Shown in pieces: positions 1-22,527 of a stretch of 43,117 nucleotides of DNA. The position numbers and the translations under genes are program-made. Below the pieces are notes generated by a model. The model did not search any database, was not told where the DNA came from, and saw nothing but the letters and a program-made list of their open reading frames with translations. The stretch covers positions 1 to 43,117 of the forward strand of contig JAFGND010000043.1 in NCBI GenBank assembly GCA_016927185.1, given 5' to 3'. Origin of the DNA: Candidatus Coatesbacteria bacterium (GTDB lineage Bacteria > JAFGND01). Each line of letters opens with the position of its first letter. The first letter of the stretch is position 1.

Positions 1-645
1 GTTCCTGCTAAAATTGTAGAGAAGAATTTCGCAAAATGGGCAAATATTTTAAGGGAAATACCTTTCCAATCTAAAAAAGAAGAAGCACTAATGAAGTTCA
101 AGGATGAAGTACTTTTAGAAGAAATAAAAAAACTTGAAAACAATTATGAGATATTATTCTCCAGTATTACTTATAACACTCTGCAGCAATATAAAATAAA
201 ATATATTCTAAGTAGATTAACACAATATATTGAAAGCATTTGGAATTCAAATGAATCAGAAAGTCATATTGAACAAATATTTTTAAATGAAACTATTGAA
301 CATATCTTACCTCAAAAACCTCAAAAGGAAGATGCTGATTTATTTGGTTCAATAGAGGAATGTGATAAATATAAGATAAAACTAGGTAATTTGGCAATCT
401 TGGATCGTAATACTCAGAGCATTATAAAGAATAAACTAATAAAAGAAAAAAGGGAAGCTTATAAGGAATATGCAAAATATCAGCTTACTAAATCAGCTTT
501 AGTAAGATTTGAACCAGTCGGAGTAGATAACTCTAAAATAAGATCATATCAGAAGTTGAAATATTTTGATAAATGGGATAAAGATGCCATAAACAATAGA
601 CAAAAAATGTTATTTGAACTATCTAAGGAAGTCTGGAAACTCTAA
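1..645 (+). CDS. C-terminal part of DUF262-DUF1524 (GmrSD-like) His-Me finger nuclease, 5' truncated by window edge
   Basis: Frame 1 is open from base 1; ETIEHILPQ...LGNLAIL...KN..KEKREAY and WDKDAINNRQ match the DUF1524 pattern. Confidence 0.8.
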   Translation, partial: VPAKIVEKNFAKWANILREIPFQSKKEEALMKFKDEVLLEEIKKLENNYEILFSSITYNTLQQYKIKYILSRLTQYIESIWNSNESESHIEQIFLNETIEHILPQKPQKEDADLFGSIEECDKYKIKLGNLAILDRNTQSIIKNKLIKEKREAYKEYAKYQLTKSALVRFEPVGVDNSKIRSYQKLKYFDKWDKDAINNRQKMLFELSKEVWKL

Positions 646-994
646 ATCTAATTTTAGATTCTCCTTCTCCATTCAAATCTTACCTACCCCATCTCCCACT
701 TCCCAATTCCTATATGTTTACAGAATATTATTGAAATAATATTTGAATATTTTAAAAGCTATCTTCTGTGAATTTCAGGAATCTTATAAACTATGCGGAA
801 ATCTTTCAGAAAAATTTTTTTTCTATCCTCATAAATTTTATAATATTTTTCGGCTTTCATAATCAAATGACTATCAAAGAAATACAGAAACCAAATTCTG
901 GAATTAAATTTATGTTAAATTTCTAGTTTTTGAAAAGATCTGTTACTTTAATAAAAAAAGCACTTTTTAAGAACTTAGAATATAGGGGGGATTA

Positions 995-3517
995 ATGGTA
1001 ATAAATAATGACCAGGAGGGATATAACGTAGAATCCGCCATTAAATGGCTGCATTATTTTTTTAGACAGGGAGAAGAATCCCTTGTTGATGAAACACATC
1101 TTCTTGAAATCGCTCTGCAAAGGCAAGAAAATGGGCTTGTAACTGTAAGAAGGAGTCCAAACTGGTGTTTCAGCTCCATGGGATCTGCGGAAGAATTCAT
1201 AAGAGGAATTTCAAGAAAGCACCAGGAAGTCGGTTTTTATTTCGGACCTGCTCTTAGATTTCAGAAACCTCCACAAGGAACTCATGCATCATCTGACAAT
1301 GATGTCTTGGAGACCAACCTAATTTACCTGGATGTCGATGCAAGGGACTTGGACATTGAAAACAGAATTGATTCTGACATTAAAAGCATCCTTGAAAGAC
1401 TTCCTTGTGAGCAGCATCCTCATTTGATGAATTTCACTGGGAATGGTTTTCATTGTTTCTGGGTTCTCAAGGATTTTGTGTCGATACATGAAGCAATGGA
1501 AGTTTCGAGAGCAATTGATCTGTATTTTCAGGATTTACTGGTTTCAATTGAATTGGATTCAATATATTATGTGGATAAATGCATCAGGAATCCCAGCAGA
1601 CTGATGCGCTTGCCAGAAACACTCAACCTCAAGCGGAAGCATGGATTTTTAAAAAAGGGAAGGATTCTCCTTAACAATCAACAAGTTGCATCCTACAGCA
1701 TTGATGATTTCCATCTTTTTGCTGAATATGGCAGAAAGAAGAAAAACAATCAACTTCTACATCCTGCGACAACTCCAGCCGAAAAAGAGCAAATTGGTTC
1801 TTCTAGTACTTTGGGCAAAGCAAACCCAGTCTCAGGAAAACTCACTAGACTCTTCAAGAAAGGTGTTCTTTTCACATTAGAAGAAATGCTCAGTTATCTT
1901 GCAGATCATGCGGATGAATTCAAGAGTTGCTATGAAATCAGCTTAACGGAAAATCAGATGGAATCTATTTGCAGAACCATCCGAAAAAATGCTGAAAGGG
2001 ATTTCAAGAGCATCAATTCAGTCTATCAGAGAAGAAATGCCTATTTAAATGGCAAATGGTATAACATCTCAGATTTCAGGCTGGAAATAATCGCTATTAT
2101 TGACGATCCTCATGAAACATTCAAGGATGTAAAATTCTATGTTGCAAATGTTTGGAAAGACAATCTCATTTTAAAAAGGTGGATTTCAATTTCTCCATCT
2201 GTAAGAGCTTCAAATGACAAGTTCAGGCAATTCATGCTGGAAACCGCTAATTGCAACTGGTCAGGAAGTAAACGAGATCTGGATGACCTTTTCTTTCATG
2301 AAGAAGCGAAAGCAGAAAGAAGTATTTTCAGGATAAGTGATATAGGCATTGCAGGTTATGTTGAAGGCATTGGCTGGGTTACAAAGCAGGGGATCTTGAA
2401 TAAAGGCAATCTAATTCACTGGGATGAAAACAATGTAGCTAATCTGGGGAATCGACAAGGAGTGCTGAAGCCAGAAAGGGAATCCTTTTTAAATCACTTT
2501 CTTGCGGATGTTAATCTAACCGGAAATAAGATAATACCTGTATCTTCTGACAATTTCTCTAATTCAACCTGTCTGGTGCTTGGCTACCTTTGTGCAGCAG
2601 TTAATTCACATCTTATTAAAGACAATGGCCTGTATCTTCCTGTACTTAACCTGTGGGGAGAGGAAGAGAATGCTTATTCTTTTCTGAAGAGTGTTTATGG
2701 CATGCTGGGACTTGATTTTGAAGGAATTACTGAAGCCGCACTTGGGATTAGAAGCACAGACGATCTCAAGAAACTGCTTTTTGGGGTAAACAACATTCCT
2801 GTTTATTTAGACAGCAGGATTTTTATTAAGAACACTCGCTTGAAATCATTCTATGAGAAAATTGTTAATCAAAAGGACTCTCCTCTATTCAGGACTAAGT
2901 CAATCATCTTTTACAACCATTGCTATCATGTAAAAAATGCAGGAAATACTTTATTGTTAAAAGTTCCCGCATCTGGAATTGAATGCCCAAATATGCTTAG
3001 GTGCTACATAGAATCTTATCCAGAAGCGATATCAATAAATGAAATAAGTGGCATTCTTCGTCGCCTTGATGTTAAATTGAATAATCCCAGAGCATTAGCG
3101 TTGTGGGGATTCTTTCATATGCTTCAAACTGGCATTCTAAAGGCATCTGGAACTAACTTTAACAGACTGGAAAGTATCAATAAAGAACTGTCTTCAACAG
3201 ATGAAAGCAAGGATCTTCTAGACAGTTTTCTTTCAGTTTTCGTTCGCCATGTTGAAAAACTCAAAAGAGAAGAGGGCTATTTATATAAGAATAAATACTA
3301 TATAAGACCGAAACATTGTTTTTCAAGGCTTTGTCAGGTTGCGGATGAATATGAGAGAGCAGTTCTGAAGAAGCTAAGTCCTGTTCAAATCAGCAAATTA
3401 CTGAAGTATTACTATGGGGAATTCGTTGAAAACACGCCCAGAAAGATATCAGGGAAGGATTCGGCAAGATACATCATCATAAATTTCGAGAACAAAAAGA
3501 ATCACCGAAATAGTTAA
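995..3517 (+). CDS. RepB-like (AEP superfamily) DNA primase fused to a degenerate DUF927/helicase-like C-terminal region
   Basis: Primase motifs YLDVD, TGNGFHCFW, RLMRLP; C-terminal PVLNLWGEEENAYS and VYLD sit where Walker A/B would be; G-rich SD upstream. Confidence 0.7.
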   Translation: MVINNDQEGYNVESAIKWLHYFFRQGEESLVDETHLLEIALQRQENGLVTVRRSPNWCFSSMGSAEEFIRGISRKHQEVGFYFGPALRFQKPPQGTHASSDNDVLETNLIYLDVDARDLDIENRIDSDIKSILERLPCEQHPHLMNFTGNGFHCFWVLKDFVSIHEAMEVSRAIDLYFQDLLVSIELDSIYYVDKCIRNPSRLMRLPETLNLKRKHGFLKKGRILLNNQQVASYSIDDFHLFAEYGRKKKNNQLLHPATTPAEKEQIGSSSTLGKANPVSGKLTRLFKKGVLFTLEEMLSYLADHADEFKSCYEISLTENQMESICRTIRKNAERDFKSINSVYQRRNAYLNGKWYNISDFRLEIIAIIDDPHETFKDVKFYVANVWKDNLILKRWISISPSVRASNDKFRQFMLETANCNWSGSKRDLDDLFFHEEAKAERSIFRISDIGIAGYVEGIGWVTKQGILNKGNLIHWDENNVANLGNRQGVLKPERESFLNHFLADVNLTGNKIIPVSSDNFSNSTCLVLGYLCAAVNSHLIKDNGLYLPVLNLWGEEENAYSFLKSVYGMLGLDFEGITEAALGIRSTDDLKKLLFGVNNIPVYLDSRIFIKNTRLKSFYEKIVNQKDSPLFRTKSIIFYNHCYHVKNAGNTLLLKVPASGIECPNMLRCYIESYPEAISINEISGILRRLDVKLNNPRALALWGFFHMLQTGILKASGTNFNRLESINKELSSTDESKDLLDSFLSVFVRHVEKLKREEGYLYKNKYYIRPKHCFSRLCQVADEYERAVLKKLSPVQISKLLKYYYGEFVENTPRKISGKDSARYIIINFENKKNHRNS

Positions 3518-3652
3518 GAAAGGAGGTTTTAATGGCATTTGATCAGATATATTTTGTTAAAAACATTAACCATAGGAGGTATTTGCTATGAATAGCAAAA
3601 CAAGTAATGAAGATGCTTTGTTTAATTCCAATCCTAAAGGGAAGGAGAAAAA

Positions 3653-4894
3653 ATGGATAATTACGATTTAACTGAATCTGGATTGCTTACTGCAAATTCA
3701 GAAACAAGTGAAAGCAAATCTTCAGAGAAGAGAGCGTTCGCTGACTTGATTTATATTGACAAGGATTTTGACAATCCACCTTTTAAAGTAAATGATAAAT
3801 ACAAAAATACTCAGCGTCCTCTCACAGAAAAAGAATACAATAATCTAAAAGATGGTATTGTGAAAAATGGTTGCCTGGAGCCACTTATAATTGATGAAAG
3901 AACAGAATATCTTGTTGATGGGTATCACAGGGAAAAGATTTGCAGAGAGAATAAAATACCCTATTCAGTGAAAAGGTTGGATTTCAAGGATGAGCAAGAG
4001 ATTCTGTTTTATGTTTTGACTCATCAGGAAGGAAGGCGTAACAATAATGGTATGGAGACTGATCTTAACATGGCAAGAATTTATAATAATTGTAAGATGG
4101 CACCAAATGGTTATAGAGATAAGGAAGAATGTACAGGAGATAATAGAGAATGGGTTGCGAAGCTCTTTAATAGAAGCAAAAGTAGTGTTACAAAATCTGT
4201 TAAGTTGCTAGAAAGTTATGAAATTATTGTGGATGTTTGCGGTAAAGAGATAGCAGATAAGATAACCAGAGGTGAGATATTGCTGAACAGAACGGAAATC
4301 AATGCAATTGCCAGATACAAGAAAGCAGACATTGAAGCCTGTATGAATGAATTGAAGGAAATTTATATCTCTCATAAAAGGAATGGCATCACTGAAATTA
4401 TTTTTAAATATGAAGAAAAATATAGTTCACAGAGAAAAGCTGAAAAACCAAAGAATGAAACTCCTACTGATGTAACATCTGATTCTGCAGTTAGAACTCA
4501 TAAGGCAGAAATTGTAGGAGAGAAGGACAATCTGAAAACTGCTTGTTCAGACAAATTTTCTGAAAGAGTCGATTCAGAAAAAAAGACAAATGAATGTTTT
4601 CATCATGACAAATCTAGCAAGGAAGGGGGAAAATCTAACAAAGCTTCAGATAAACAGAAATGTCACTCAGAAGATGAAGTGATAAGTGATTTGATTAATG
4701 AATCATCTAATCTTGAGATAAGACTAGATTCCTTTTTTCAGAAACTTAATGCTTCAGGATTTGCAGAGAGTTTTAGGGAGATTCAGCAATCTAATCCCAC
4801 TGACTGGATGACCGTTATCAGGAATTTCAGGAAAACACTCAAAATAGACAGCAATAAGAGCATTGAGCAAACTGGAGATGTTAGTAAATTCTAA
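3653..4894 (+). CDS. ParB/Srx-like N-terminal domain protein with HTH and charged low-complexity tail
   Basis: LEPLIID...LVDGYHR..IC and QEGRRN motifs; REWVAKLFNRSKSSV HTH-like; SD AAGGAG. Confidence 0.8.
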   Translation: MDNYDLTESGLLTANSETSESKSSEKRAFADLIYIDKDFDNPPFKVNDKYKNTQRPLTEKEYNNLKDGIVKNGCLEPLIIDERTEYLVDGYHREKICRENKIPYSVKRLDFKDEQEILFYVLTHQEGRRNNNGMETDLNMARIYNNCKMAPNGYRDKEECTGDNREWVAKLFNRSKSSVTKSVKLLESYEIIVDVCGKEIADKITRGEILLNRTEINAIARYKKADIEACMNELKEIYISHKRNGITEIIFKYEEKYSSQRKAEKPKNETPTDVTSDSAVRTHKAEIVGEKDNLKTACSDKFSERVDSEKKTNECFHHDKSSKEGGKSNKASDKQKCHSEDEVISDLINESSNLEIRLDSFFQKLNASGFAESFREIQQSNPTDWMTVIRNFRKTLKIDSNKSIEQTGDVSKF

Positions 4895-4904
4895 ATTGAA
4901 AGAG

Positions 4905-4933
4905 ATGCAGGATAGGATTTTCTTATCCTGCAT
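4905..4933 (+). terminator. Hairpin after parB-like gene, probable terminator
   Basis: ATGCAGGATAGGA-TTT-TCTTATCCTGCAT, 13-bp stem with one G-U, followed by TATTTGT. Confidence 0.55.
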
Positions 4934-6422
4934 TATTTGTCGGATTGAAAGATCTGCTTCAATTCTTGATCTTCTCGTTAGTAAAATTATCAACGGGAAG
5001 ATGCTCATACAATAAGAAATGATAAAAAATGGAATAATAGTACCTATTTTAGCCATTCTTTATTGAATCCTTTTATTTATAAATGATTTACAGGATTATT
5101 CCCCATCTTTTTGTAACAATGTAGTTTTTTTAAGTGCCTTATGACTTGCTTTTGGACAGAGTTTATGAAGGAATTGTGGTCTTTTTTAATCCTTGTCTAA
5201 AATGCCTCCTATTAGCAAATAAGTAAAGAAGAAGAAAGAATCTAGTTCTAGACTAGCACTAGAAGAAACTAAGTTCATTTTAGAAAATAATAATGATCAT
5301 TGAAAAAATAATGTAAAAAGAACCAACATTGGATTCTAGTGAAATTAATGATCCTAGATAATTACTAGGTAAGGGTAAGGAGATGGACCTGAAATATGTA
5401 TGTGTTGGTTGGTGCGAAGTCTCCGAGTACATCCCTTTAAATTTCGACGATTTACTTCTGGACAGTACAATTCCTCCAGGAAGCATTTTGCTCTTAAATT
5501 TGAGGCTTTCTGGGGTTAATTTAGGCAGGGAGTGATGCATGGGTTGATGGGTTAATGATTAGGGGGGGATTGGTGGGTGGGTCAATGTGTTGGTTGGTAT
5601 GGATTTATGTTGTGGTGGGGAGGTAGGTTGGTTTGTGTGATATGGTTTTTCAGAGATTTTCTTGGATCATGATTTTCTTCTAAGATTATCCATTTCTCTA
5701 AAAGGATCTTTGGACAGGTGTTTTTTGAAAATCATCATTAATCTTCAATTCACATGTCCAGTCTTCCGTTCTATATTTTCTTTAATTATCAGGGAACTAT
5801 TTCAAGCCATTAATCTTAGATAGGTATCAGCAATAATAAATCCAACTAAATCCTTCTGTTAAAATGTTCAGGATTATCTTTTGTACAGGAATCATCTCAT
5901 TATCATTACCATTTAAGGTAGTTAACATAATACCTTTACTTTATTCACTTTATTCCATTACCCATACTTATTAACTCTTACTAGATTCTTTTTCCTTTCC
6001 TTTCCTGGTCCTAGTTTATCTTTAGTCCTAGTTTTCTTTGGAGGTGATTAAAAGCCATCTAAAAGTTTAATAAGATCCAATTGCATTAATCCTGCTATCA
6101 TTCTTTTTCCTTTCTATCTCTTTTTTCTTTCTTTTCTCTTTCAAAGCTATTATGTTATATCTAGCTTATTTTATTTTCCTTTATGCTGGTTTTGTTGCAG
6201 GATATTTTAGCTAAACCTTTTAGTCTGTTTTACATTCTGGCTATTGTTTTTCTGATAATGCTAATCTTCCAGTCCCGCTTTTGTTAACATTTGAAAGCTA
6301 GTTTTTCATTAACATCTGGTTCTGGGATGATTTAGAGATGATTATTTATTTTATGTAGTTTTTTTATTTTTTCATTTCTATGTTATTTTATATATGATTC
6401 TAATTTATGGGAGGAGGTGAAG

Positions 6423-6881
6423 ATGGATTTGATTCCAGAAAATTCTTTTAGTGAAGAGGATTATTCTTTTTCGCACAGTGAGAAAATTATTAAAGGTCAG
6501 ATGAAAAGAATAAGTGACGGTTTACCAGCATCCAGAGCTTTCCTAGGTTACAAAAACGTCATTAAAGAAGGGAGGAAAGTCGTTGAGATTGATAAAGATA
6601 GCTCTGAATTTATAGTGACGGTGTTTAGGCTTTATAGTTCGGGTAGCTATTCATTGCGGAAACTAGCTCTGAAACTAAGATCAATGAAGCTGGGTGAAAA
6701 GGGTAAAAGATTCAAAACTAATCCGGTATCTCTGCAGAAGATCATTACCAATTCAGCTTACTGTGGACTTTTGAAAGATTGTAATGGTAGGATATTTAAA
6801 GCAAGTTTTGATGCAATTGTTGATTTAGAAACATTTGAGAAGGCTAATAAATTGTTGATTCGGGAAATCTCTAAAGAATGA
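6423..6881 (+). CDS. Stand-alone serine-recombinase DNA-binding (Recombinase) domain protein, no catalytic domain
   Basis: GYKN...VFRLYSSGSYS...IITNSAYCG...AIVDLETFEK aligns by eye with the middle of ORF 19120; ATG 6423 has SD GGAGG. Confidence 0.8.
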   Translation: MDLIPENSFSEEDYSFSHSEKIIKGQMKRISDGLPASRAFLGYKNVIKEGRKVVEIDKDSSEFIVTVFRLYSSGSYSLRKLALKLRSMKLGEKGKRFKTNPVSLQKIITNSAYCGLLKDCNGRIFKASFDAIVDLETFEKANKLLIREISKE

Positions 6882-7041
6882 TCCGGCAGAGATTGGTTCA
6901 TGGATTTGTTGAAAAATGTAGTGATTATGAGGGTAGAGAGATTGGGTGGGTTTAGTGGAAAGGAGGCTGATGCGTGTAATCAGTCTCCTAGAAAAAATAA
7001 GAGCTTAAAATGAAAAAAATTAAATATATAAGGAGGTAAAA

Positions 7042-7572
7042 ATGGAAGAATTAATGTTTAAACACGTTCTGAAGAATCCTGTCACTGGTGAAGAGGAGCA
7101 GATTTTAATAATAAATCCCCAGTCTTTTGCAATTCCTGTTTACAGGCTTCAAATGAACGCATTTGATTTGATTTTTTTGCTGGAAAGGAATCCTCGGCTT
7201 GCTTGTTTCTTCATTGAATACTACAAAAAAGTTATGAATTTAAAGTCTGCTGATGTGAGAACCTTAGAGGAGAATTTTGTTGAGGCTGCATTCATTTTTG
7301 AAAGTTTTTTGGAAGAACATAAAGAAATTGTAAAAGCTTCAAGAAAGTATAAACAGTTTAGAGAATTTTTTTACAATATCTTCGATTGCATTAACGATTT
7401 AATTCTTAATCTAGAAACAGCTCAGATGTTCAAAGACAATTTCAGTCTGTGGGTAAAAATGCAAGGTAAAAACCTTGATGACATTGAATCTGATTTAGAT
7501 TGGGCTAAGCTTTTTTTAGAGTTTTACAATTTGTGTGAAATAAAATACTTTCTGCCCATGTTCTATATCTAG
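7042..7572 (+). CDS. Hypothetical protein, probably helical
   Basis: 176-aa ORF, strong SD AAGGAGGT, hairpin downstream; no motif recognised. Confidence 0.7.
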   Translation: MEELMFKHVLKNPVTGEEEQILIINPQSFAIPVYRLQMNAFDLIFLLERNPRLACFFIEYYKKVMNLKSADVRTLEENFVEAAFIFESFLEEHKEIVKASRKYKQFREFFYNIFDCINDLILNLETAQMFKDNFSLWVKMQGKNLDDIESDLDWAKLFLEFYNLCEIKYFLPMFYI

Positions 7573-7587
7573 CATTAAAAAATCATA

Positions 7588-7613
7588 AAGGCAGGTTGAA
7601 ACATACCTGCCTT
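7588..7613 (+). terminator. Hairpin after ORF 7042, possible terminator
   Basis: AAGGCAGGT-TGAAACAT-ACCTGCCTT perfect 9-bp stem; no clear U-tract. Confidence 0.45.
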
Positions 7614-8650
7614 AATGAATGCATTGAAACATTGATGCATGTGAATCTTTGCTAACACCCCCTGTCCATGTTTTGGGTGATGTATGTCGCGAAAAATGTG
7701 AGTGGGAATATTCTGCGGGAAATGGATTCAGGGAATAATGGGTCATCGTACTAAATTCTGTGTTGGGTGAATCATTGGTGGATGTTGCATGTGAGATTAT
7801 TTATAAGACCATCTCTTCTTAATCTTCTGAAATTTAATGTGTGGATCTCAGAGGATTAGTGTAGATGAAAGCGGAGATCAACCCAAAAGCTCAGAAAATG
7901 GATTTAGGAAATAATGAATCGCGCAGAGAATGTGTCTTTAAAACAAACCCCTCTAAACCCCACAGATTAGAAGAGTTTTGGGAAACAGGGGAAAATATAT
8001 TAGGATTGGAGAAACAATGCTGAGGAATTGACAATAGAGGCTTTTTTGAGGGAAGCAAGATTAAGAGAGGAAACTTGATGTATGGATTAAAGTAAGAATG
8101 GGAATAAAAGTTAGCTGAAAGGATGGAAGGGAAAAAAGATGGATGGTTTCTGGAAAGAATCTGGGTGATGGGAAGACTAATGTGGTAGTTGATATGATTT
8201 CTTCTCATTTTCCAAAACAGTGCAGGGGGAAGAATAGTAAATTAGTGTTTTGGTGGATAGAATGATGTATGATGTAGATTTAAAGCGGGTCTATGAAATA
8301 ATGGGTAGAAATGAAATGCTTTGGTTATTCCTACATATTGGCTAAAGATTTATTGGTAGATGCTTAGAGAATCTGCCTTGTTGGAGATGATTAATGATTA
8401 CTGTGACTATGACAAATACGGTATCCACAAATAAAGCGGCTAGGGATGGGGGCAGAGAATTAGTGTGGTAGAGAAAATATTGATAAGGAGAGAGTTGGAG
8501 GGAGATGATTATAGATTTAGGGAAAATTCTTGACAAGATAAGTGGAAAATAATTAAACACCAGTAATCTTAATATGATAATATCCAAAAGACATTTTACT
8601 AAAATTGGGAGAATTTTTAAAAGTGGATAACTTAAGTAAAGGAGCATAGA

Positions 8651-10042: not shown

Positions 10043-10050
10043 GGGGAGTT

Positions 10051-12939: not shown

Positions 12940-12950
12940 AGGAGATAAAA

Positions 12951-14057
12951 ATGAAAAAAACAATAACTATAATGATATGCTTTTCAATAGCTTCTTTGTT
13001 TATGACTCTTTCTTGTATGGATGAAAACGAAATTCCTGAATATAATTCTGGAATAGGAGATCAGACAGGTTATCCGGCACCCGTTTGGGAGGTATATTTG
13101 GGGAGTTACAGTGAACCATGTAATGTTTGGTGTGTTGATGTGAATAATGAATACTTTCTTGCTTCTGGAAATAATGCTGTAAGACATTGGTTTATTGGCT
13201 TTTATCCCCAACTTAAACGTACAACTGGTGGTTTAAGCGGTGATGTCCTTTCTGCAGCATTTGTATATCCTAATCAACAATATCCAATTTTAGTTGGTCA
13301 AGAAGATGGATATCTTCTTAGATTTAGATGGATACCGATAATGGGTGGAGAGAAACGTGATACATTGAATATTAAGAAAACTGGCGAAATACCAATTCAT
13401 GCGATAGACGTTAGTAATAGTGATCCTCAAAAGTGCCTAATAGCTAGGTATGATACTGTTGAGTATTGGCAGACAGTATTGCCAAAGGAATTTGAAAAAT
13501 TGAAGACTTATACAATAGAACAAGGAGTAGAAAGCAATACATACATCTGGTCTATAGATTTTTGCTCTGGTGATCAATATTTTATAACAGGAGGTTTTGA
13601 TAAAAATGTTTATAAATGGAACATTTCTGTACAGTATTCTCTTTTTCATTTCGAGGATCATTCTTTAGAAGGACTCCATCCCCCAAGTCACAAAGATAGA
13701 GTTCGAAGTGTAAAAGTAGCATCAAATAGCAGCTTTGTTCTTTCAGGAGGAAATGATGGAAAACTGAAAAAGTGGGATTTAAACGGAAATCTAATATGTA
13801 CTTTTAATGGACATAGTGATAGACCTTATGGATTTATTTCTTCTATAACTATAACAGATGACAATTGTACAGCTGTAACAGGTGGTGATGACGGAGAAAT
13901 AAGAGTTTGGGATGTTCAGAATAATAATGCATTTGCAATAGCCGGTTTTCATGTTGGTGGAGTACATTCTGTAGCCATTTTAAAAGGAGCTAGTGGCACT
14001 AATTATATATTGTCATCTGGTGCAGATGGGAAAGTAAAATGCTGGAATATACCTTAA
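12951..14057 (+). CDS. WD40-repeat lipoprotein
   Basis: Lipobox LSC; repeated SGG.DG..K.WD / GH motifs. Confidence 0.85.
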   Translation: MKKTITIMICFSIASLFMTLSCMDENEIPEYNSGIGDQTGYPAPVWEVYLGSYSEPCNVWCVDVNNEYFLASGNNAVRHWFIGFYPQLKRTTGGLSGDVLSAAFVYPNQQYPILVGQEDGYLLRFRWIPIMGGEKRDTLNIKKTGEIPIHAIDVSNSDPQKCLIARYDTVEYWQTVLPKEFEKLKTYTIEQGVESNTYIWSIDFCSGDQYFITGGFDKNVYKWNISVQYSLFHFEDHSLEGLHPPSHKDRVRSVKVASNSSFVLSGGNDGKLKKWDLNGNLICTFNGHSDRPYGFISSITITDDNCTAVTGGDDGEIRVWDVQNNNAFAIAGFHVGGVHSVAILKGASGTNYILSSGADGKVKCWNIP

Positions 14058-14071
14058 TAAGGAGAAAGATA

Positions 14072-15394
14072 ATGAGAATTATATTATTTATCATATTCCT
14101 CTTTTCCTTTTCAACCTTGCACGGTGCAGGAGAACTGATCTGGAAATCGGAGAGGATACTGAAAAAGGAAAATAATGGATACAGAATCCAGACTTCTCCT
14201 GTAATAGGTTATAATGGATCAGAAAAGCTTCTTTTTGTTTTCTCTAATACTACAGAAGGATATGGAGATACAGGATTATTATGCTTTGATCCGTTAACAG
14301 GAGATCTTAAATGGCTATATAATCTTTATCCTAACATAGATGCTAATCCAGTTTATGATGATGGAATTATATATGCTCCAGGACGTGATTTTTTTTACGC
14401 AATATATTCCAGTAATCATACTTTGAAATGGGAGTATGATTCTCCATATGAATCTTATACTCCTTTAATTCACAGTAATAGCATATTTGCAAGTCTTTCA
14501 CTTTTAGTATCTCTGAATAAAGAATCTGGTGGAAAAAACTGGCAGTCTATAGTTGATTCTTACTATCAACCTTTATTTCTTGAGAATTTTCTATTTGTTG
14601 TTGATTATTATCATTGGCTTACTGCAGTAAATGCAGCAAATGGAGACACATTATGGTGGGGATATTCTAAATTAGTCAGAACAGAGCTTGCACCGATCTT
14701 GTGGAATAATTATATCTATATCAGTGAAGCTAGTAATTATAACGGTTGTTCAAAAATAAATCCAAAAGATGGAAAGAGGATATGGAATTATCATGTAGAT
14801 AATATCAGAACTTCACCATATATTTTGAATGAGAAGATTTATTTTGGAGATGTAGACGGCTATTTATATTGCCTTGATGCCAATGATGGCTCTTTCAAGT
14901 GGAAGGCAGCGGTAGGAGATACTGTAGCATCTACAATAACATCTGCATATGATCCAGTAACCCAAAAGGATGTTCTTTATTTTGGAAGCAATCTTGATTA
15001 TCTTCATGCAAGAGATGCAGCAGATGGCAAGCATTTATGGGTTTACAAGACAGGAGGAAATATACGTTCAACTCCTTGCGTATCAGACAGTATAATTTAT
15101 TTCACAAGTGATGACGGTTATCTCTATGCAGTGAATATTGGTTTCAAGGATGGCTTCAATAAAAAGCAATCCTCCCATCACCTTCCATCCCCCTCCCTTT
15201 CCTCATATCCCAATCCATTCAGGGACAGACTGATTATAGAAACATCTGACAAGGCAAGGATATACTCTATCACCGGGCAATTTATCATGAAAGTAGAGAA
15301 AGGCAAGCACTCTATTGATACTAGCAGCTGGAAACAGGGAGTATATATAGTGAAGAGCGGTACAGAAACCAAGCGCATTGTAAAAATCAACTAG
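14072..15394 (+). CDS. Secreted PQQ-type beta-propeller protein with T9SS type A-like C-terminal domain
   Basis: ATG 14072 after SD AAGGAG gives a signal peptide; IYFG..DGYLY.LDA.DG..KW repeats; YPNPF tail. Confidence 0.88.
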   Translation: MRIILFIIFLFSFSTLHGAGELIWKSERILKKENNGYRIQTSPVIGYNGSEKLLFVFSNTTEGYGDTGLLCFDPLTGDLKWLYNLYPNIDANPVYDDGIIYAPGRDFFYAIYSSNHTLKWEYDSPYESYTPLIHSNSIFASLSLLVSLNKESGGKNWQSIVDSYYQPLFLENFLFVVDYYHWLTAVNAANGDTLWWGYSKLVRTELAPILWNNYIYISEASNYNGCSKINPKDGKRIWNYHVDNIRTSPYILNEKIYFGDVDGYLYCLDANDGSFKWKAAVGDTVASTITSAYDPVTQKDVLYFGSNLDYLHARDAADGKHLWVYKTGGNIRSTPCVSDSIIYFTSDDGYLYAVNIGFKDGFNKKQSSHHLPSPSLSSYPNPFRDRLIIETSDKARIYSITGQFIMKVEKGKHSIDTSSWKQGVYIVKSGTETKRIVKIN

Positions 15395-15498
15395 CTCAGA
15401 ACTACCTTTCTTGTTTTATTATATAGAGCTTGTGGAAACCCATGAGCTCTTTTGTTTCACAAATCATCTCTCCACGCTATTTTTCTTCAGAAAAGACC

Positions 15499-15526
15499 TT
15501 GACAAATTCACTTAATCAATTACATT
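15499..15526 (+). promoter_or_regulatory. Sigma70-like promoter for ORF 15552
   Basis: TTGACA-16 nt-TACATT, 25 nt upstream of the ATG. Confidence 0.45.
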
Positions 15527-15551
15527 GCAAAAGAATAGGTAAGGTGGAGAA

Positions 15552-16628
15552 ATGGAAAAATCAAGAAAATACTCTATATGCTTTTTTCAGGAAAAGGTAT
15601 TTCATGACATTGGCAAGAAAGCATTGTTGATTTATCTAGGGCTGCAATCATTAGCGGATTGCTGGGGGATGGTAACTAATGATGTTTTTCTAATAAAGAA
15701 CTTGCTGTCTGGGATGTTTGATGCTGAAGAGATAGAAGAAGCAATTGATATAATGGAGAGATCAGGTTTGCTGGAAAAAGTAAATAATCAGGATTGTTAT
15801 TTTCTGAAGAATTTTCATAAGCATCAGAGACCAATAATATACTTCGAGAAACTTCCTGATTTCATCCCCACCTATGAGATTCTCCATTCTGCAAGAATTG
15901 CAGTTTCTAAAATTAAAGGAATGGAGTCATACAATAGTGCTATTGAATTTTTCTGCAAACTTGGTTATATTGATGATGATCAAATAGATAGGCTAAAATT
16001 CCCGGGGAATTCACCGGGAATTACCGGGGAATTCCTCCTAGGAAAGGATGAGGTCCTAGAAATAAATAAGGAAGGTAAGGAACCTAGTGCATCCTTAGCT
16101 TCCGATCCAGTTCCTGATAATTATTCTGATCCTGAAATATTGAAAGAAGCGGAACAGTTCATGAGGTTCTGGAGAGATCTGAATTTAACTGGGGAAGCAA
16201 ATTTAATAGATATTGCAAAACTAATTAAGCAAGACAAATGGAAGGATTGGAAAAAGATTCTGCCAGTTATTTCAAGACATAGGTGTTTCAGAACCAAGAC
16301 CAATCCTGTGACATTGATTCAATTAATTAACAGCCAGAAAACCAATGATCTCGCAATCCAGATCTACAAAGAAAACAGACCAGCAAAACCTTCAGCAAAA
16401 GAAAGAAAGATTTATGTTTTCGTGAAAGAACTTAAAAGTTATGTTCCAGTCTCGCGTGAAGCATTCAAAAGGCTAGGCATAGAAGATATAGAAGTAAGCC
16501 TTGAAGTACTGAGAGAGAAAGTACCGGAACTTAATTTAAATCTGGAGCCCCAAAAAATAATAGTACCAGTGAAGGGTATGAGAAGTATAGGAGAAATCAT
16601 AGAAGAGAAGATTAACAAAGATCTATGA
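15552..16628 (+). CDS. Phage-type replication initiator-like protein
   Basis: N-terminal ALLIYLGL..LADCWG...IK and NFHKHQ resemble phage replisome-organiser N-domains; GC-rich tandem repeats in mid-gene. Confidence 0.6.
   Translation: MEKSRKYSICFFQEKVFHDIGKKALLIYLGLQSLADCWGMVTNDVFLIKNLLSGMFDAEEIEEAIDIMERSGLLEKVNNQDCYFLKNFHKHQRPIIYFEKLPDFIPTYEILHSARIAVSKIKGMESYNSAIEFFCKLGYIDDDQIDRLKFPGNSPGITGEFLLGKDEVLEINKEGKEPSASLASDPVPDNYSDPEILKEAEQFMRFWRDLNLTGEANLIDIAKLIKQDKWKDWKKILPVISRHRCFRTKTNPVTLIQLINSQKTNDLAIQIYKENRPAKPSAKERKIYVFVKELKSYVPVSREAFKRLGIEDIEVSLEVLREKVPELNLNLEPQKIIVPVKGMRSIGEIIEEKINKDL
15997..16034. repeat. Three tandem iteron-like CCGG(G)GAATT repeats
   Basis: AATTCCCGGGGAATTCACCGGGAATTACCGGGGAATTC read directly. 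Confidence 0.75.
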
Positions 16629-16994
16629 GTTTCTAAGTAAAATTTCCAAAAAGATTATTGTATCCGTAGCGTGTCATCAGAAATTAACCTCTTTTGCGAG
16701 GTCTGAGATCTTGGGAAAGATTTAGCGAATTAATTAGTTAGCAGATTAGCATTAAAAAAATACTGTAAATACCTTAATTTTAAAGAGAATTGACCAAATC
16801 ATTATCTAGAAACATCCCACTTCTAATCAACCAGAAATGCCTTAAAAATCGATTGTTCCTGAAGATGGTAAACTAATAAGGGGATAGTACTTATCGTTTA
16901 AAATTGAGGCATTTGTGAGGGGAAGATTGAGACAAGATTATGGGAAGAAGGTTGTAATGATTTGTGGAGGGAAAATATTTCTGATATTTTGCCC

Positions 16995-17022
16995 TTGACT
17001 TCTTTGGAAAAGGTGTTATATG
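16995..17022 (+). promoter_or_regulatory. Sigma70-like promoter upstream of ADP-ribosylglycohydrolase
   Basis: TTGACT-16 nt-TATATG with extended TG; a second TATAAT at 17035-17040. Confidence 0.4.
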
Positions 17023-17086
17023 AAAGAATAAGTTTATAATGAAGTACTGATAATGCAGTGTTGATAATAAATTAAGGAGGGATCAA

Positions 17087-18007
17087 ATGGAAAAAAACCA
17101 AATAGTTAATGGAATCTGGGGAGTTGTTGTAGGGGATGCGTTGGGACTTTCAGCTCAAGCACGTGGGAAGAAGCATCTTAAAGAGAACCAGATAGAAGGA
17201 CTTATCACTTATGGTCCTGAAGGAAGGTATCGTGGTGGCTGGTCAGACGATAGTTCCATGACATTGTGCCTTACAGAAAGTCTTGGTAACGGTTATGATG
17301 TAGAAGACATAGCTCGTAGATTCAAACTCTGGTTCTTTAAGGGTTATATGACGCCGTATGGAGAAGCATTTGATAAAGGGCATTCGACAATAAGAGCTCT
17401 TCGAAAACTGAACAAAGGTGTTTCGCCATTATTGTCAGGTGGAAGCAAGGAAAATGATAATGGAAATGGAAGTCTTATGAGAACATTACCATTAATATTC
17501 TTTACAAACGATATGGACACAGAAAAGACATTAAAAATAGTTCATGAAGTTTCAGCAATAACGCATGCTCATGAAAGAACCATGATTGCATGTGGTATAT
17601 ATGTGTTCATTGGCAAATACCTTATAGAAGAGACTAGCAAGGAAGAGGCATTAAAGAAAGGTATTGAAGATGCGAAAGAGTTTTATAAAGACAGTACTGA
17701 GCTTAAGCATTTTGAGAGGATTTTAAATGGTAATATTTCTGAAGTCCCAAAGACCAGGATAAAAACAGGTGGTTATTCAGTTACTTCCCTGGAAGCATCT
17801 CTCTGGGCTTTTATGACAGGAAGCTCTTACAGGGAATGTACATTGAATGCAGTAAATCTTGGAGGGGATGCTGACAGTATTGGTGCAATTACTGGTGGAC
17901 TGGCAGGATTGTTTTACCAGGATGTTCCAGATGAATGGATAGATGATATAATAAAAAAGGAGATGATAGAAAATTTGATCCAGAGGTTTGTAGAAAAAAT
18001 AGTTTAG
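17087..18007 (+). CDS. ADP-ribosylglycohydrolase family protein (DraG/ARH-like)
   Basis: GDALG, WSDD, GNGSLMR, ITH and GGDADSIGAITGGLAG motifs; SD AAGGAGG. Confidence 0.95.
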   Translation: MEKNQIVNGIWGVVVGDALGLSAQARGKKHLKENQIEGLITYGPEGRYRGGWSDDSSMTLCLTESLGNGYDVEDIARRFKLWFFKGYMTPYGEAFDKGHSTIRALRKLNKGVSPLLSGGSKENDNGNGSLMRTLPLIFFTNDMDTEKTLKIVHEVSAITHAHERTMIACGIYVFIGKYLIEETSKEEALKKGIEDAKEFYKDSTELKHFERILNGNISEVPKTRIKTGGYSVTSLEASLWAFMTGSSYRECTLNAVNLGGDADSIGAITGGLAGLFYQDVPDEWIDDIIKKEMIENLIQRFVEKIV

Positions 18008-18011
18008 CAAC

Positions 18012-18043
18012 TAATTCAACTAAAGGACACTTTTGTTGAATTA
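18012..18043. repeat. 32-bp imperfect palindrome upstream of the tyrosine recombinase
   Basis: TAATTCAAC-T-AAAG-GACA-CTTT-T-GTTGAATTA. Confidence 0.65.
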
Positions 18044-18059
18044 TAGGAAAGGAGATAAA

Positions 18060-18602
18060 ATGAGAACCAGAGCCTTGAGGAATATTGTAAAAACCATTGA
18101 AGCAATTAATGAGCACAGACACAAGAAAAGAAATACGCTTTTAGTACTGTTGGGAATTTATACTGGGCTGAGAATTAGTGAACTTCTGAATCTGGATATT
18201 GAGGACATAAAGATAAATGGGAAAATTAGTGACGCAATAGTATTCAGGGGCAAAGGCAGGAAAACAAGACAGGTACCTCTTTCAAGAAGAATTCAAGTTC
18301 TGCTGGAAGACTATCTTAAAAATTATGAGGTTGGACCATTATTTGTAAGCCAGATGGGAAAGAGAATGAGCAGGTTCCAGGCATATGTGATAATGAGAAA
18401 CATCGCCATGAAGACATCCCAGACTAATGTTGCAACACATTCATTGAGAAAGACATTTGCCCAGTCCTTGTTAGATGCAGGTGTTGATGTTGAGACAATG
18501 AGAGTTCTGCTGGGGCACAGTTCAATTTCAGTGACACAAAGATATATTGAGACAGATGAGAGCAAGATGTTTGCTGCAGTGGGAAGACTGAGTTTTGGCT
18601 AG
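18060..18602 (+). CDS. Tyrosine recombinase, catalytic domain only (resolvase/invertase-like)
   Basis: TGLRISE, GKGRK, HSLRK, LGH, TQRY catalytic set intact; ATG 18060 follows SD AAGGAG. Confidence 0.92.
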   Translation: MRTRALRNIVKTIEAINEHRHKKRNTLLVLLGIYTGLRISELLNLDIEDIKINGKISDAIVFRGKGRKTRQVPLSRRIQVLLEDYLKNYEVGPLFVSQMGKRMSRFQAYVIMRNIAMKTSQTNVATHSLRKTFAQSLLDAGVDVETMRVLLGHSSISVTQRYIETDESKMFAAVGRLSFG

Positions 18603-18626
18603 GAAAAATACTTTATCGCAGAAAAG

Positions 18627-18759
18627 CATATATCATATAAATAAAAACTAGAATTTTTAAAATTTTAAAGTTGAAAAAAATAGTCTTTATTTCGTAATTT
18701 TTTCACACTATGTAAAAATAACTCCCAATAATTGGTTATTTTTTCATATATCATATAAA
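18627..18759. repeat. 15-bp direct repeat CATATATCATATAAA, two copies
   Basis: Exact copies at 18627-18641 and 18745-18759. Confidence 0.7.
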
Positions 18760-18839
18760 ACTATTAATTTATTAAATTTTTATCTTGACTAAATAATGCC
18801 ATTAATTTTAAGTGCTACAATTAAACAAAAGGGGGAAAA

Positions 18840-19061
18840 ATGAAACAGGAAAAATTCACTGAAATTGCAAAGGGAGTCTGGCAAACCATTGTTGATACAG
18901 CAATAATGACTGCAATTGCCACTGAGAATGTAATCAGAGATGCGGTAAAAAATCTGTGTGATTTCTTTGATATCTTGAATGATTCAAATATCAAGCAATT
19001 GAATGTACCTACTGCTTTGGAAAAGGAGCCTGTGAAGATCAATAAAGAAAGCAAAGGTTGA
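18840..19061 (+). CDS. Small hypothetical protein upstream of the integrase
   Basis: 73 aa, SD AGGGGG, extended -10 TGCTACAAT at 18813-18821. Confidence 0.6.
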   Translation: MKQEKFTEIAKGVWQTIVDTAIMTAIATENVIRDAVKNLCDFFDILNDSNIKQLNVPTALEKEPVKINKESKG

Positions 19062-19119
19062 TAAATAATAGCTGAATTGATCAATTGTCTTTAACTTAAT
19101 CTTTTAGAAGGAGGAAATC

Positions 19120-20685
19120 ATGGATTCGAATGATTTATTGAGATCAGCAGTTATTTATTGTCGAGTTAGTTCCTCTCGTCAGGAGAAAGAAGGCTATTCA
19201 ATTCCTGCCCAGGAGAAGTTGCTCATAGAATATGCTCTAAAGAATAATATAAAAGTTGTTAAAACATTCAAGGAAGCAGAATCAGCAAAAGAATCAGGCA
19301 GAAAGTGCTTCAATGAGATGGTTAGGTTTTTGAAAGAAGAGAAGGAAAAGAAAAGTGACGACAGGTGCAGAAGCATATTGGTTGAGAAAGAAGACAGACT
19401 GACAAGGAATTTTAAGGACATTGTTACTTTGGATGATCTTGACCTGGATCTTTATTTTGTTAAAGAGAATATTTGTATTAGTAAGAACTCATCATCACAG
19501 CAGAAATTAATTCATGGTTTCAAGGTATTATTAGCAAAGAACTATTCTGACAATCTGAGAGAAGAAACTCAGAAGGGAATGTTGGAAAAAGCAAGACAAG
19601 GATATTATCCCTCTGCCGCTCCTATCGGCTATAAAAATGTAACGATTGACGGAAAAAAGGAAATTATAGTTGATGAGAAAAATAGAAGCTTTATTGAGAG
19701 ATTATTTGAACTTTATGCTACAGGTGAATATTCTATTACTGTAATCAGAGAAAAACTAGTAAGAGAAGGACAAGGAATAACTAAAAAAAGCAATAAAGTA
19801 GTAAGAAGCAGGATACATGCCACTCTAAGAAACCCATTTTATTATGGAGATTTCATGTGGAAGGGGATTTATTATGAGGGGAAACATGAACCGATTATCT
19901 CAAGAGAATTATTTAATAAGGTTCAGGAGGTTCTATCAGGTAAAGGAAGACCTAGAAAGCGAGTTCATGACTTCACTTTTAAGGGACTTCTTAGATGCGG
20001 ACATTGTGGTTGCAGATTAGTTGGTTATCTTGCTAAAGGCAAATATATTTATTATCATTGCAACCGGAGCAAAGCTATATGTAATGAAAAATATGTCAGT
20101 GAGCAAGAAATGGACAAACAATTCATGGAAGATCTGAAGTATTTTAAAATGAGTAATGAAACAATAGAACATTTAAGAAACGCCCTTAATGAAAGCCACC
20201 AAGAAGAAAAACTCTATTTTGAATCTTGTATGAATAACCTTGATCAAGAAATAAAGAATCTTAGAAAAAAACTTTCCATAGCATATGAAGATAGAGTGAA
20301 TGGGATAATAACTGCTGAAGAATATGTACAGATGAGTAACGCATGGAAGATGAGATTATCTGAAGTTTCCGAAGAAATTGATAGACATGACAAAGCTAAT
20401 ATTGGTTATTATGAAGATGGGGAAAGAATACTAGAACTCGCTCAAAACGCTGTATTAATCTATTTTAAGATGAATTCTGAAGAAAAAAGAAAACTCTTGA
20501 ATCTGGTTTACTCGAACTGCTTCTGGAAAGACGGAAAAATGATTCCTCAATATCGCCAACCTTTTGATATACTTATAGATATGAATAAGAAAAAAAATCA
20601 AATGAAAGGTCAAAAAAGGCTAAAAATTGATAAAATCGATAGGAGTTACCCCTGGCGGGATTTGAACCTGCGACCGACGGATTAG
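19120..20685 (+). CDS. Large serine recombinase (integrase)
   Basis: YCRVSS catalytic Ser, DRLTR, recombinase domain, CGHCG...YYHC...C zinc ribbon, coiled coil; SD AGGAGG. Confidence 0.95.
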   Translation: MDSNDLLRSAVIYCRVSSSRQEKEGYSIPAQEKLLIEYALKNNIKVVKTFKEAESAKESGRKCFNEMVRFLKEEKEKKSDDRCRSILVEKEDRLTRNFKDIVTLDDLDLDLYFVKENICISKNSSSQQKLIHGFKVLLAKNYSDNLREETQKGMLEKARQGYYPSAAPIGYKNVTIDGKKEIIVDEKNRSFIERLFELYATGEYSITVIREKLVREGQGITKKSNKVVRSRIHATLRNPFYYGDFMWKGIYYEGKHEPIISRELFNKVQEVLSGKGRPRKRVHDFTFKGLLRCGHCGCRLVGYLAKGKYIYYHCNRSKAICNEKYVSEQEMDKQFMEDLKYFKMSNETIEHLRNALNESHQEEKLYFESCMNNLDQEIKNLRKKLSIAYEDRVNGIITAEEYVQMSNAWKMRLSEVSEEIDRHDKANIGYYEDGERILELAQNAVLIYFKMNSEEKRKLLNLVYSNCFWKDGKMIPQYRQPFDILIDMNKKKNQMKGQKRLKIDKIDRSYPWRDLNLRPTD

Positions 20686-20721
20686 GAATCCGGCGCTCTA
20701 TCCATACTGAGCTACAGGGGC
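20647..20721 (-). tRNA. tRNA-Arg (anticodon CCT), CCA not encoded
   Basis: Reverse complement folds as a cloverleaf: GCCCCTG/CAGGGGT acceptor, GCTC/GAGC D-stem, TTCCTAA loop, TTCAAAT T-loop. Confidence 0.93.
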
Positions 20722-20728
20722 AAAAAAA

Positions 20729-21764: not shown

Positions 21765-22520
21765 TCAAACAGCTTTTTCATTCAATCTTTCAACAGCCAG
21801 TTTACAGTATTCTTCATCTATTTCTATTCCTATTGCTTTTCTTCCAAGATGTCTTGCTGCTAGCAGTGTTGTTCCACTACCCATAAATGGGTCAAGTATT
21901 AAATCATCAGTAAAGCTGAACAACTTGATGCAGCGATAGGGAAGTTCCATGGAGAATGATACTGGATGAGCAGTTTTCCTGTTGACTTCTTCAGGAAATG
22001 ACCATATTCCATTTGTCCATTCATTGAACTCTTCCTCAGAAATATCTGAGCATCCCTTGCCGCTTTTCTTCCATTTCTCCTTGTACAGGACAACAATAAG
22101 CTCAACTGGTGAAATAATGCGAGGAGCAGAAATATCCATGACAGGAACTGCTTTATTTTTCGGGATATCACCTTCTTGCAAGATTATTGTACTGTGATAC
22201 TTGAATCCTGTCTTTTTTGCAATCGCAGTCAAGTCAGCTCCAACACTCTGTTTACCGTTGTTGTTCTTTTCCAGAGGGATATTGAGACAGAATCTTCCAT
22301 CCTCCTTAAGCCATTTATGGAAGCAGGAAAGCCAGTTTTCACACAGGAATAAATATTTGGAATAATCCATATTATCATCGTGCGAATCATATTTTATGTC
22401 TATGTCAAAAGGAGGGGAGGTTATTATAAGGTCTATTGAGTCATCAACAATACTCTCCGTAATGAAGATATTTTCATTGTAGATTCTAATATCTTCAGTC
22501 TCATAATATGATTTATCCAT
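21765..22520 (-). CDS. Orphan beta-class N4/N6 DNA methyltransferase, diverged
   Basis: ITSPPF (motif IV) precedes LDPFMGSGTT (motif I); start ATG 22520 assumed. Confidence 0.85.
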   Translation of the reverse strand: MDKSYYETEDIRIYNENIFITESIVDDSIDLIITSPPFDIDIKYDSHDDNMDYSKYLFLCENWLSCFHKWLKEDGRFCLNIPLEKNNNGKQSVGADLTAIAKKTGFKYHSTIILQEGDIPKNKAVPVMDISAPRIISPVELIVVLYKEKWKKSGKGCSDISEEEFNEWTNGIWSFPEEVNRKTAHPVSFSMELPYRCIKLFSFTDDLILDPFMGSGTTLLAARHLGRKAIGIEIDEEYCKLAVERLNEKAV

Positions 22521-22527
22521 GATAATC

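Follow-up and report, generated by a model that had tools for sequence, protein, structure and literature searches.

A Probable Integrative Element at a tRNA-Arg Gene

What kind of element lies against the tRNA-Arg(CCT) gene of a Candidatus Coatesbacteria bacterium, and where does it end? The question is raised by contig JAFGND010000043.1 of the assembly GCA_016927185.1, a stretch of 43,117 nt that was analyzed at its full length (hereafter the window; it is the whole of contig C77). A sequence-only reading of its first half had proposed a tRNA-integrated element, visible only in part, with three recombinase genes, two replication modules and no capsid or conjugation genes. Our analysis indicates that a single genomic island of ~31.6 kb probably occupies positions 1-20,660 of the window with its tRNA-proximal ~20.7 kb; it would have been inserted by a large serine recombinase (LSR) into the 3' end of the tRNA gene (T-stem and acceptor strand) and runs on into a second contig, C30.

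Integrase and Attachment Core

The gene abutting the tRNA encodes an LSR with the Resolvase (PF00239, E 9.5e-21), Recombinase (PF07508, E 1.1e-13) and Zn_ribbon_recom (PF13408, E 5.1e-10) domains in the N-to-C order of this enzyme class. Residues 14-21, which read CRVSSSRQ in the translation, fit the R-x-S-x-x-x-Q type motif, the N-terminal catalytic-serine motif of serine recombinases. The frame crosses a 14-bp core, and its stop codon lies 41 nt within the tRNA gene; the full LSR next to a tRNA described in the sequence-only reading is hereby confirmed.

An exact copy of the core (14/14) was found near the start of contig C49 (C49:81-94), in the tRNA orientation, ending at the last base of the tRNA, with the flanks of the two copies unlike on both sides. 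The locus shows an Islander-type signature, that is, an intact tDNA (20645-20722) and a same-orientation 3' fragment (C49:81-94) with the integrase between them; the link runs across three contigs, and the fragment lies within a repeat family. No further copies of the core were found in the window or C30 at up to three mismatches (0 matches), nor was there any hit of at least 13 nt inside C77 or C30. By estimate, ~3 random 14-mer matches are expected genome-wide for a 160-nt query. The 14-mer as a chance match was considered and rejected on account of its orientation and its position, exactly at the tRNA end and beside the contig that completes the GmrSD gene of the island (see below). As sufficient proof by itself, it was likewise rejected once the repeat family of the left end had been found.

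In elements of this enzyme class, attL and attR have just a short core in common, surrounding a 2-bp crossover. An AGGTT motif stands at distances from the core of 4 nt (tRNA side) and 9 nt (island side), a weak sign of a 5-bp shift between the left arms. The zinc-ribbon motif of serine integrases is described as shifted by 5 bp between attB and attP (PMC3783163). From its position only, the 73-aa open reading frame (ORF) preceding the LSR gene is a candidate directionality factor or regulator.

Read by eye, the tRNA itself (20647-20722) has a wobble at G1-U72 and, in its T stem, a mismatched A-C; both involve the 3' part that the island would supply, and the displaced copy on C49 carries the same bases at these positions. 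A scan of the window for a terminator near the tRNA end returned only a weak 5-bp stem (20641-20653). In the Rfam scan of the island and its flanks, only the tRNA matched.

Extent and Gene Content of the Island

The first gene of the window is the C-terminal part of a GmrSD-type restriction enzyme. The sole GmrSD_N match in the genome lies at C30:432-1163, in a frame open to the contig end, and the two halves are collinear on the PADLOC Orf5 profile of 554 positions (7-352 for C30, 381-543 for the window); the contig ends therefore abut, with a gap of ~10-20 codons. In the assembly graph, the far end of C30, a contig of ~10.9 kb that precedes the window, is joined to the start of C49 through an overlap of exactly 87 nt (C49(rc)/C30(rc)), and beyond the displaced core C49 carries a single-copy housekeeping operon, pho-pst. 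Together, ~10,884 nt, 20,660 nt and the gap give the island size of ~31.6 kb. The claim of an integrated, partly visible element at the tRNA is borne out. Its supposed extent from base 1 of the window did not hold, the window being a whole contig and the island extending onto C30. The locus is a case in which a fragmented metagenome assembly conceals one third of an island.

Leftward extension through the assembly graph, a check proposed in the sequence-only reading, added a type I restriction-modification (R-M) system, the rest of GmrSD, a PIN protein and more cargo of the type IX secretion system (T9SS), and revealed no backbone of a prophage or an integrative and conjugative element (ICE). 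In the orientation of the window, the gene order on C30 is WD40 T9SS protein, MORN-repeat protein, PIN protein, HsdR, a 92-aa ORF, HsdM, HsdS and the N-terminal half of GmrSD. All 20 main ORFs of the island (C30 and the island part of C77) lie on one strand, and all long ORFs of window positions 1-20685 are on the plus strand. The two 5-kb segments of C30 have the lowest GC content of the 546 in the genome (0.305 and 0.316, 0.7th percentile); in the island part of C77 it is 0.33-0.356, the genome mean being 0.359.

By its gene content the island is neither a standard prophage nor an ICE, since no capsid, portal, terminase, relaxase or type IV secretion system (T4SS) family was found among the 20 main ORFs with Pfam and PHROG; the lack of capsid and conjugation genes had been stated correctly. 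The hallmarks of ICEs and of integrative and mobilizable elements (relaxase, coupling protein, T4SS) were not detected by Pfam in C30 or the island part of C77. Packaging-redirecting genes (small terminase, capsid-size, head-morphogenesis) were not found in the 20 ORFs with Pfam and PHROGs, which remote homologues could escape.

Just outside the island, a gene for an N6/N4 DNA methylase (21765-22529, minus strand), without a visible nuclease partner, adjoins the phosphate acetyltransferase gene (20729-21733).

Table 1. Features of the island within the window and the evidence for each.
Feature	Position	Strand	Evidence
GmrSD-type (type IV) restriction enzyme, C-terminal 214 aa	1-645	+	GmrSD_C E 5.2e-17; N-terminal 398 aa at start of C30
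840-aa protein, archaeo-eukaryotic primase (AEP; RepB'/PrimPol-type) domain at residues ~60-260	995-3517	+	remote hidden Markov model matches, invariant motifs, fold
413-aa protein, probable ParB/Srx-like N-terminal domain	3653-4894	+	PHROG ParB-like E 2.5e-4; Atlas look-alikes 0.96
T-rich spacer, 1.5 kb, ORFs all short	4895-6416		hairpin z = -6.6 at 4895-5014, 1/12 segments
Relic of a second LSR, 154 aa, Recombinase domain only	6417-6881	+	PF07508 E 7.5e-10; phrog_95 integrase profile 216-355 of 651
Protein of unknown function, 176 aa	7042-7572	+	no Pfam, PHROG, NCBIfam or PADLOC match
C-poor spacer (10.6% C), 1.1 kb	7573-8650		hairpin z = -3.6 at 7573-7692, 1/8 segments
Four exported beta-propeller/large proteins (463, 962, 368, 451 aa)	8651-15394	+	Por_Secre_tail, PQQ_2, WD40 matches
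358-aa protein, first ~95 residues like phage replication initiator/organizer	15552-16628	+	phrog_12556 E 4e-5, residues 1-95
ADP-ribosylglycohydrolase (DraG/Tri1-like), 306 aa	17087-18007	+	PF03747 E 1.1e-61
Minimal tyrosine recombinase, 189 aa, catalytic domain only	18033-18602	+	PF00589 Phage_integrase E 1.7e-31, profile 8-170 of 172
73-aa ORF directly upstream of LSR	18840-19061	+	no family match (Pfam, PHROG)
LSR (integrase), 521 aa integrated form	19120-20685	+	Resolvase, Recombinase, Zn_ribbon_recom domains; phrog_95 E 1.5e-76
tRNA-Arg(CCT), integration target	20645-20722	-	ARAGORN; Rfam 62.2 bits; 3' end probably supplied by island
14-bp core common to both island ends, TACCCCTGGCGGGA on plus strand	20647-20660		equals the last 14 nt of the tRNA

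Putatively Split Integrase Gene and Left-End Repeats

When the island ends are joined via the core into a putative circle, the LSR frame gains 27 codons from the far left end, giving 541 aa instead of 521; the tail reads IIKTLFSNPSYETKMAFKIVRELLKVC. These last 27 codons of the gene would be severed by integration and regained on excision of the complete 31.6 kb; from the sequence, the support for such a split gene is moderate. A paralogous copy of the left-end segment on C97 keeps the frame and its stop, with 22/27 residues identical, and the copy at C49:9368-9474 has a stop within the tail frame. The ~85-100 nt next to the core would be conserved because they encode the LSR tail. Two nested mobile units (995-7572 and 15552-20685) had been suggested earlier; this is not supported, as there is no internal copy of the tRNA end in the window or C30, and, with the missing tail encoded at the far left, excision would have to remove the whole 31.6 kb as one unit.

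Several observations weigh against this interpretation of the locus. The left boundary spans three contigs with an unassembled gap between C30 and C77, and a further graph edge runs from the end of C30 to C89. The final 100-180 nt of C30, with no fewer than the first 7 nt of the core among them, are a member of a repeat family, other copies of which are found at C49:9368-9474 (13/14 of the core), C97:89714-89895 (first 7 nt of the core only) and the start of C89; the 14-mer is therefore not unique to the C30/C49 junction. Both the T9SS genes and a dispersed repeat of the left end have a host-like look. Among segments of the ORF-free spacers, 13% contain an open frame of 27 codons, and the C30 and C97 tails differ at five synonymous and five non-synonymous codons, so that purifying selection on the tail is not demonstrated. 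The right half-sites, by reading of the sequence, have no shifted shared motif, and a displaced tRNA fragment of at least 10 nt was found within 8-10 kb upstream in none of the four distinct LSR relatives described below (0/4).

All four junctions of the family are alike up to ...TCCCGCC (one copy with one mismatch) and then diverge: the tRNA end follows in two of them (C49:88 onward, and C49:9468 onward with one core mismatch), unrelated DNA follows on C97, and C89 differs. We read the junctions as putative attL-type scars left by related elements, the crossover lying at the CC or beside it; the family could instead be a dispersed repeat that breaks the assembly. The second edge from the same C30 end leads, on C89 (1-3022), into two T9SS cargo genes oriented like those of the island, and could stem from strain variation, from integration at a secondary site or from a tandem array. 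No second LSR gene was found in the genome.

The sole pho-pst operon (response regulator, kinase, PstSCAB, PhoU; C49:95-9367) lies between two of these putative scars, which are in direct orientation; its GC content is ordinary (0.353). By position, the operon falls within a tRNA-Arg-anchored region. Segment C30:10711-10763 is part of a dispersed ~50-nt repeat with more than 25 copies (e.g., C95:31-60, C106:45-73, and C60:99-132), often near contig ends, and in more than 100 genes of the genome a T9SS sorting domain of high conservation is encoded, often at contig ends as well; the repeat and these genes probably fragment the assembly.

Relatives of the Integrase

Pattern scans returned relatives of the LSR with 29-47% identity at two genome and eight metagenome loci. 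Set aside were L024 and L028 (the same as L016), L026 (like L027 but cut), and L023, L025 and L029, where the contig ends inside the gene. In all four distinct relatives that remain, the LSR frame reaches 14-41 nt into a tRNA gene on the opposite strand (Gln, Asp, Asp, and Asn) before it ends, which together with the window makes 5/5 loci. The loci of the relatives share no other island genes, save type I R-M genes in several; in relatives from other phyla these lie close to the LSR at L015:7300-10000, L025:1850-2650, and, in both L026 and L027, 2040-5500. The co-occurrence of the core genes elsewhere, which the sequence-only reading had named as a test, was not found: searches gave a single homologue for the primase and none for the ParB-like and Rep-like proteins, and only the LSR-tRNA module recurs. 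No LSR relative was found in 2.9 million viral contigs.

Two candidates for the far ends of relatives were rejected. A 9-nt fragment in L016 would give an in-frame tail of only six codons, and a 13/14 match elsewhere in the L015 genome, on a different contig, is no better than chance, the backwards control having also matched once. In L015 (11440-11490), L022 and L016 (at the same place), a GC-rich hairpin in the last ~50 nt of the LSR gene is followed by a T-run on the strand of the tRNA (read by eye); such a hairpin would act as a tRNA terminator inside the integrase gene. In a non-exhaustive literature search, without supplements, no paper on a tRNA-targeting LSR clade or a split LSR gene was found.

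Replication and Partition Genes

The 840-aa protein has no match in Pfam, PHROG, NCBIfam or PADLOC, and one homologue, full-length and 31% identical, among 5.8 billion proteins. A profile of the two retrieved another 49 proteins at E <= 0.001, almost always through a match to positions 60-260; RepB_primase is carried by 13 of them, and others have PriCT_1, DUF5906, VapE, D5_N and similar primase-helicase domains. Residues 99-286 are matched by 15 Pseudomonas phage records, several annotated as DNA primase. Residues D113, D115, G149, G151 and D194 are invariant in the 49-sequence alignment, and H153 by reading, corresponding to the DxD, sGxGxH and third acidic motifs. A model of the N-terminal 301 residues (predicted local distance difference test, pLDDT, 86.6) matches the folds of the cyanophage S-2L PrimPol (E 3.3e-8, TM 0.71 by target) and RSF1010 RepB' (E 1.9e-5); it has 19 PDB matches at E <= 0.001, and the matches listed are AEP primase-polymerases, including LigD polymerase domains. 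Judged by motifs and predicted fold, the N-terminal domain is an AEP primase, and the RepB-type primase named in the sequence-only reading was correct at the superfamily level.

The C-terminal ~550 aa belong to no known family and contain no Walker A motif; the full-length AlphaFold model, made from a two-row alignment, has a pLDDT of 30.8. No relatives of the primase were found in metagenome contigs or in the 2.9 million viral contigs. PDB sequence searches with the 840-, 358- and 413-aa proteins returned nothing below E 0.19.

The 413-aa protein has no Pfam match at E <= 0.01 and no homologue by word-based search; in one cluster of its Atlas look-alikes, ParB_N is present in 83%. Of the earlier claim of a ParB-like gene without ParA, the second part stands, as no ParA gene was found in the island, and the ParB-like call is a weak one, given its scores (Table 1). 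The same applies to the proposed second phage-type initiator, the 358-aa protein: its PHROG match covers residues 1-95 only, and the match to TIGR01714 (E 0.0048) is below the cut-off. Its Atlas leads are viral clusters; it has no match among phages and no homologue by word-based search. Inside the gene, at 15997-16033, three overlapping palindromic 15-mers (AATTCCCGGGGAATT-like) with 11-bp spacing form a GC-rich patch in AT-rich DNA; their count, six matches over two strands, was reached by 0/100 shuffles. They may be regarded as a candidate origin or binding site.

Other Recombinases and Cargo

The LSR relic has neither the catalytic domain nor the zinc ribbon, and over 133 aa its identity with the LSR is 28.6%; it is therefore a relic of a different LSR. 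What the sequence-only reading called a catalytically truncated paralog is truncated indeed, to the Recombinase domain, but is no recent paralog. The minimal tyrosine recombinase was recognized correctly: R, K, HxxR, H and Y can be made out in its translation, and there is no room for an N-terminal domain. A counterpart was not found next to the LSR relatives. A role as an invertible-switch enzyme was considered and rejected, as there are no good inverted repeats within 3 kb.

The cargo of the island comprises the type I R-M system, the GmrSD type IV enzyme, the PIN protein, the ADP-ribosylglycohydrolase (a 49%-identical paralog is encoded on C106) and six exported propeller/repeat proteins. 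The secreted cargo noted earlier was confirmed, the T9SS C-terminal sorting domain being present in 3/4 genes of 8651-15394. These proteins belong to a very large host family, with paralogs across the tRNA in the window and elsewhere in the genome. Such islands carry restriction systems and secreted proteins through a lineage without cultured members.

Non-coding Regions

Four ORF-free blocks (4895-6416, 7573-8650, 16629-17086, and 18603-19119) make up ~3.6 kb in all. They were folded in 120-nt segments against dinucleotide shuffles, on the plus strand, with a threshold of z < -2. Two of 27 spacer segments folded better than the shuffles (0/21 in the coding-region control); both directly follow stop codons and therefore look like terminators. 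The long structured spacers of the sequence-only reading are thus ORF-free as described, and not hairpin-rich. The spacers are unique in the genome, have no Rfam match and contain no convincing long direct or inverted repeats or iteron arrays. The G/T-rich DNA at 5540-5650 and the C-poor DNA at 7573-8650, both ORF-free and without a family match, could be decayed genes or carry a non-coding function.

Possible Mechanism and Alternative Explanations

We propose that attP of the element would recombine with attB at the tRNA gene, the crossover falling within the CC of the core or beside it, and that the island would provide a replacement 3' end of the tRNA. The LSR would have 541 aa in the circle and 521 aa once integrated, excision of the 31.6 kb giving the tail back. 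The excised circle may replicate by means of the AEP primase protein, the initiator-like protein or both; a candidate origin is the group of three phased palindromes in the gene of the latter, and the ParB-like protein may help maintenance.

The interior of the island suggests a mosaic history, because it holds an LSR relic and two unrelated replication-type genes. The same two features, with the relic merely 28.6% identical to the live LSR, would fit a composite accreted island of at least two elements of different age, in which a tRNA-proximal unit with the live LSR (~15.5-20.7 kb) and an older unit with the primase, ParB-like and relic genes enclose host-like cargo, and the present attL/attR pair marks the outermost event only. 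We consider this unlikely, since no internal partial copy of the tRNA or core was found in the window or C30 at the thresholds given above, the tail-coding segment ties the far left end to the live LSR, and the genes are all on one strand. In favor of accretion are also the GC content of C30 (0.31), which differs from that of the C77 part (0.33-0.36), the extra attL-type scars on C49 and C97 as putative marks of repeated activity of such elements in the genome, and the accretion model described in the tycheposon preprint (bioRxiv 10.1101/2020.12.28.424599).

Less likely still, the locus could be a fixed, immobile remnant, an LSR stranded beside a tRNA, with a left boundary that is a by-product of the assembly-breaking dispersed repeat. 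The repeat family and the second graph edge, the host-like T9SS paralogs, and orphan core genes without signs of spread agree with this, and the copy at C49:9368-9474, the sole scar with a stop in the tail, shows that such ends decay here. However, the LSR is full-length and has all three domains as well as the motif of the catalytic serine, both ends carry an identical core (14/14), and a chance 14-mer exactly at the tRNA end, beside the contig that completes GmrSD, is very unlikely. A phage satellite or another hitcher dependent on a helper phage or conjugative element for its transfer seems the least probable explanation. The combination of integrase, primase and initiator genes without structural or transfer genes would suit it, as would the mostly viral clusters nearest to the initiator-like and ParB-like proteins and the phage primases matched by the primase domain. 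Yet ~31.6 kb exceeds the size of satellite families, which are generally smaller, the cargo consists mainly of defence genes and secreted proteins, no small terminase, capsid-remodelling or relaxase/oriT-type gene was detected in the island, and neither the primase nor the LSR has a relative in the viral contigs. The satellite-like nature suggested by the sequence-only reading is not supported, given the size of the island and the viral-contig and packaging-gene results.

A single LSR-inserted island is preferred here. A bolder extension of it is possible, though we hold it doubtful: the island may belong to a cross-phylum class of self-replicating integrative elements whose serine integrase targets tRNA 3' ends with a core inside its own gene, the 541/521-aa tail swap acting as a switch of directionality or expression, and the scars on C49 and C97 recording repeated visits. 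If such a class exists, the scars might place the sole pho-pst operon inside a tRNA-anchored island region.

Comparison with Known Elements

tRNA genes are textbook targets of tyrosine integrases. The islands collected in Islander (PMC4383910) are limited to that class and combine an intact tDNA with a same-orientation displaced 3' fragment and an integrase between them. The island described here has the same tDNA signature and, as in that class, a crossover in the T-stem region, here a predicted one, but the gene abutting the tRNA is an LSR in 5/5 loci, and the tyrosine recombinase of the island consists of the 189-aa catalytic domain only, with no counterpart in the relatives.

Tycheposons are tRNA-anchored, carry replication genes, and have been explained by an accretion model with fragmented integrases and partial tRNAs; an LSR is carried by 27 of 937 elements (bioRxiv 10.1101/2020.12.28.424599). 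The island resembles these Prochlorococcus elements in its tRNA-proximal integrase, primase/replication genes, cargo with defence genes, partial tRNA flank, and fragmented integrase. It differs in having an LSR that spans the att site, where tycheposons mostly have tyrosine recombinases, in its T9SS cargo, and in the phylum of its host.

The N-terminal domain of the 840-aa protein shares the fold and the DxD...D and GxGxH motifs of RSF1010 RepB' and S-2L PrimPol; unlike these, the protein has no Pfam model at threshold, an extra C-terminal part of 550 aa, and one full-length homologue.

In its Resolvase, Recombinase and zinc-ribbon architecture, the LSR is like the enzymes of known serine-integrase elements (phiC31, Bxb1, A118/LI, SPbeta; SCCmec Ccr), which likewise have a short core common to both ends. 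Phage integrases match it at 26-31% identity, and its best NCBIfam models are CcrB/CcrA of SCCmec, but far below the cut-off. The island differs from these elements in its target, the 3' end of a tRNA gene, in the frame across the core, through which integration would alter the C-terminus of the integrase, and in the absence of phage genes. Serine integrases of a clade directed at the 3' ends of tRNA genes, as seen in a candidate phylum and in 4/4 relatives from other lineages, would broaden the range of targets known for the enzymes on which genome engineering relies most.

Integrases of the Fusellovirus SSV1 type, which are archaeal-virus tyrosine recombinases, have attP inside their gene, and the gene is split near its N-terminus on integration into a tRNA gene. 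The island gene would likewise be interrupted at a tRNA, but it encodes a serine recombinase that would lose only a 27-codon tail. The severing of an integrase gene by the reaction of its own product is a simple and testable model of how direction or expression could be controlled without a known directionality factor.

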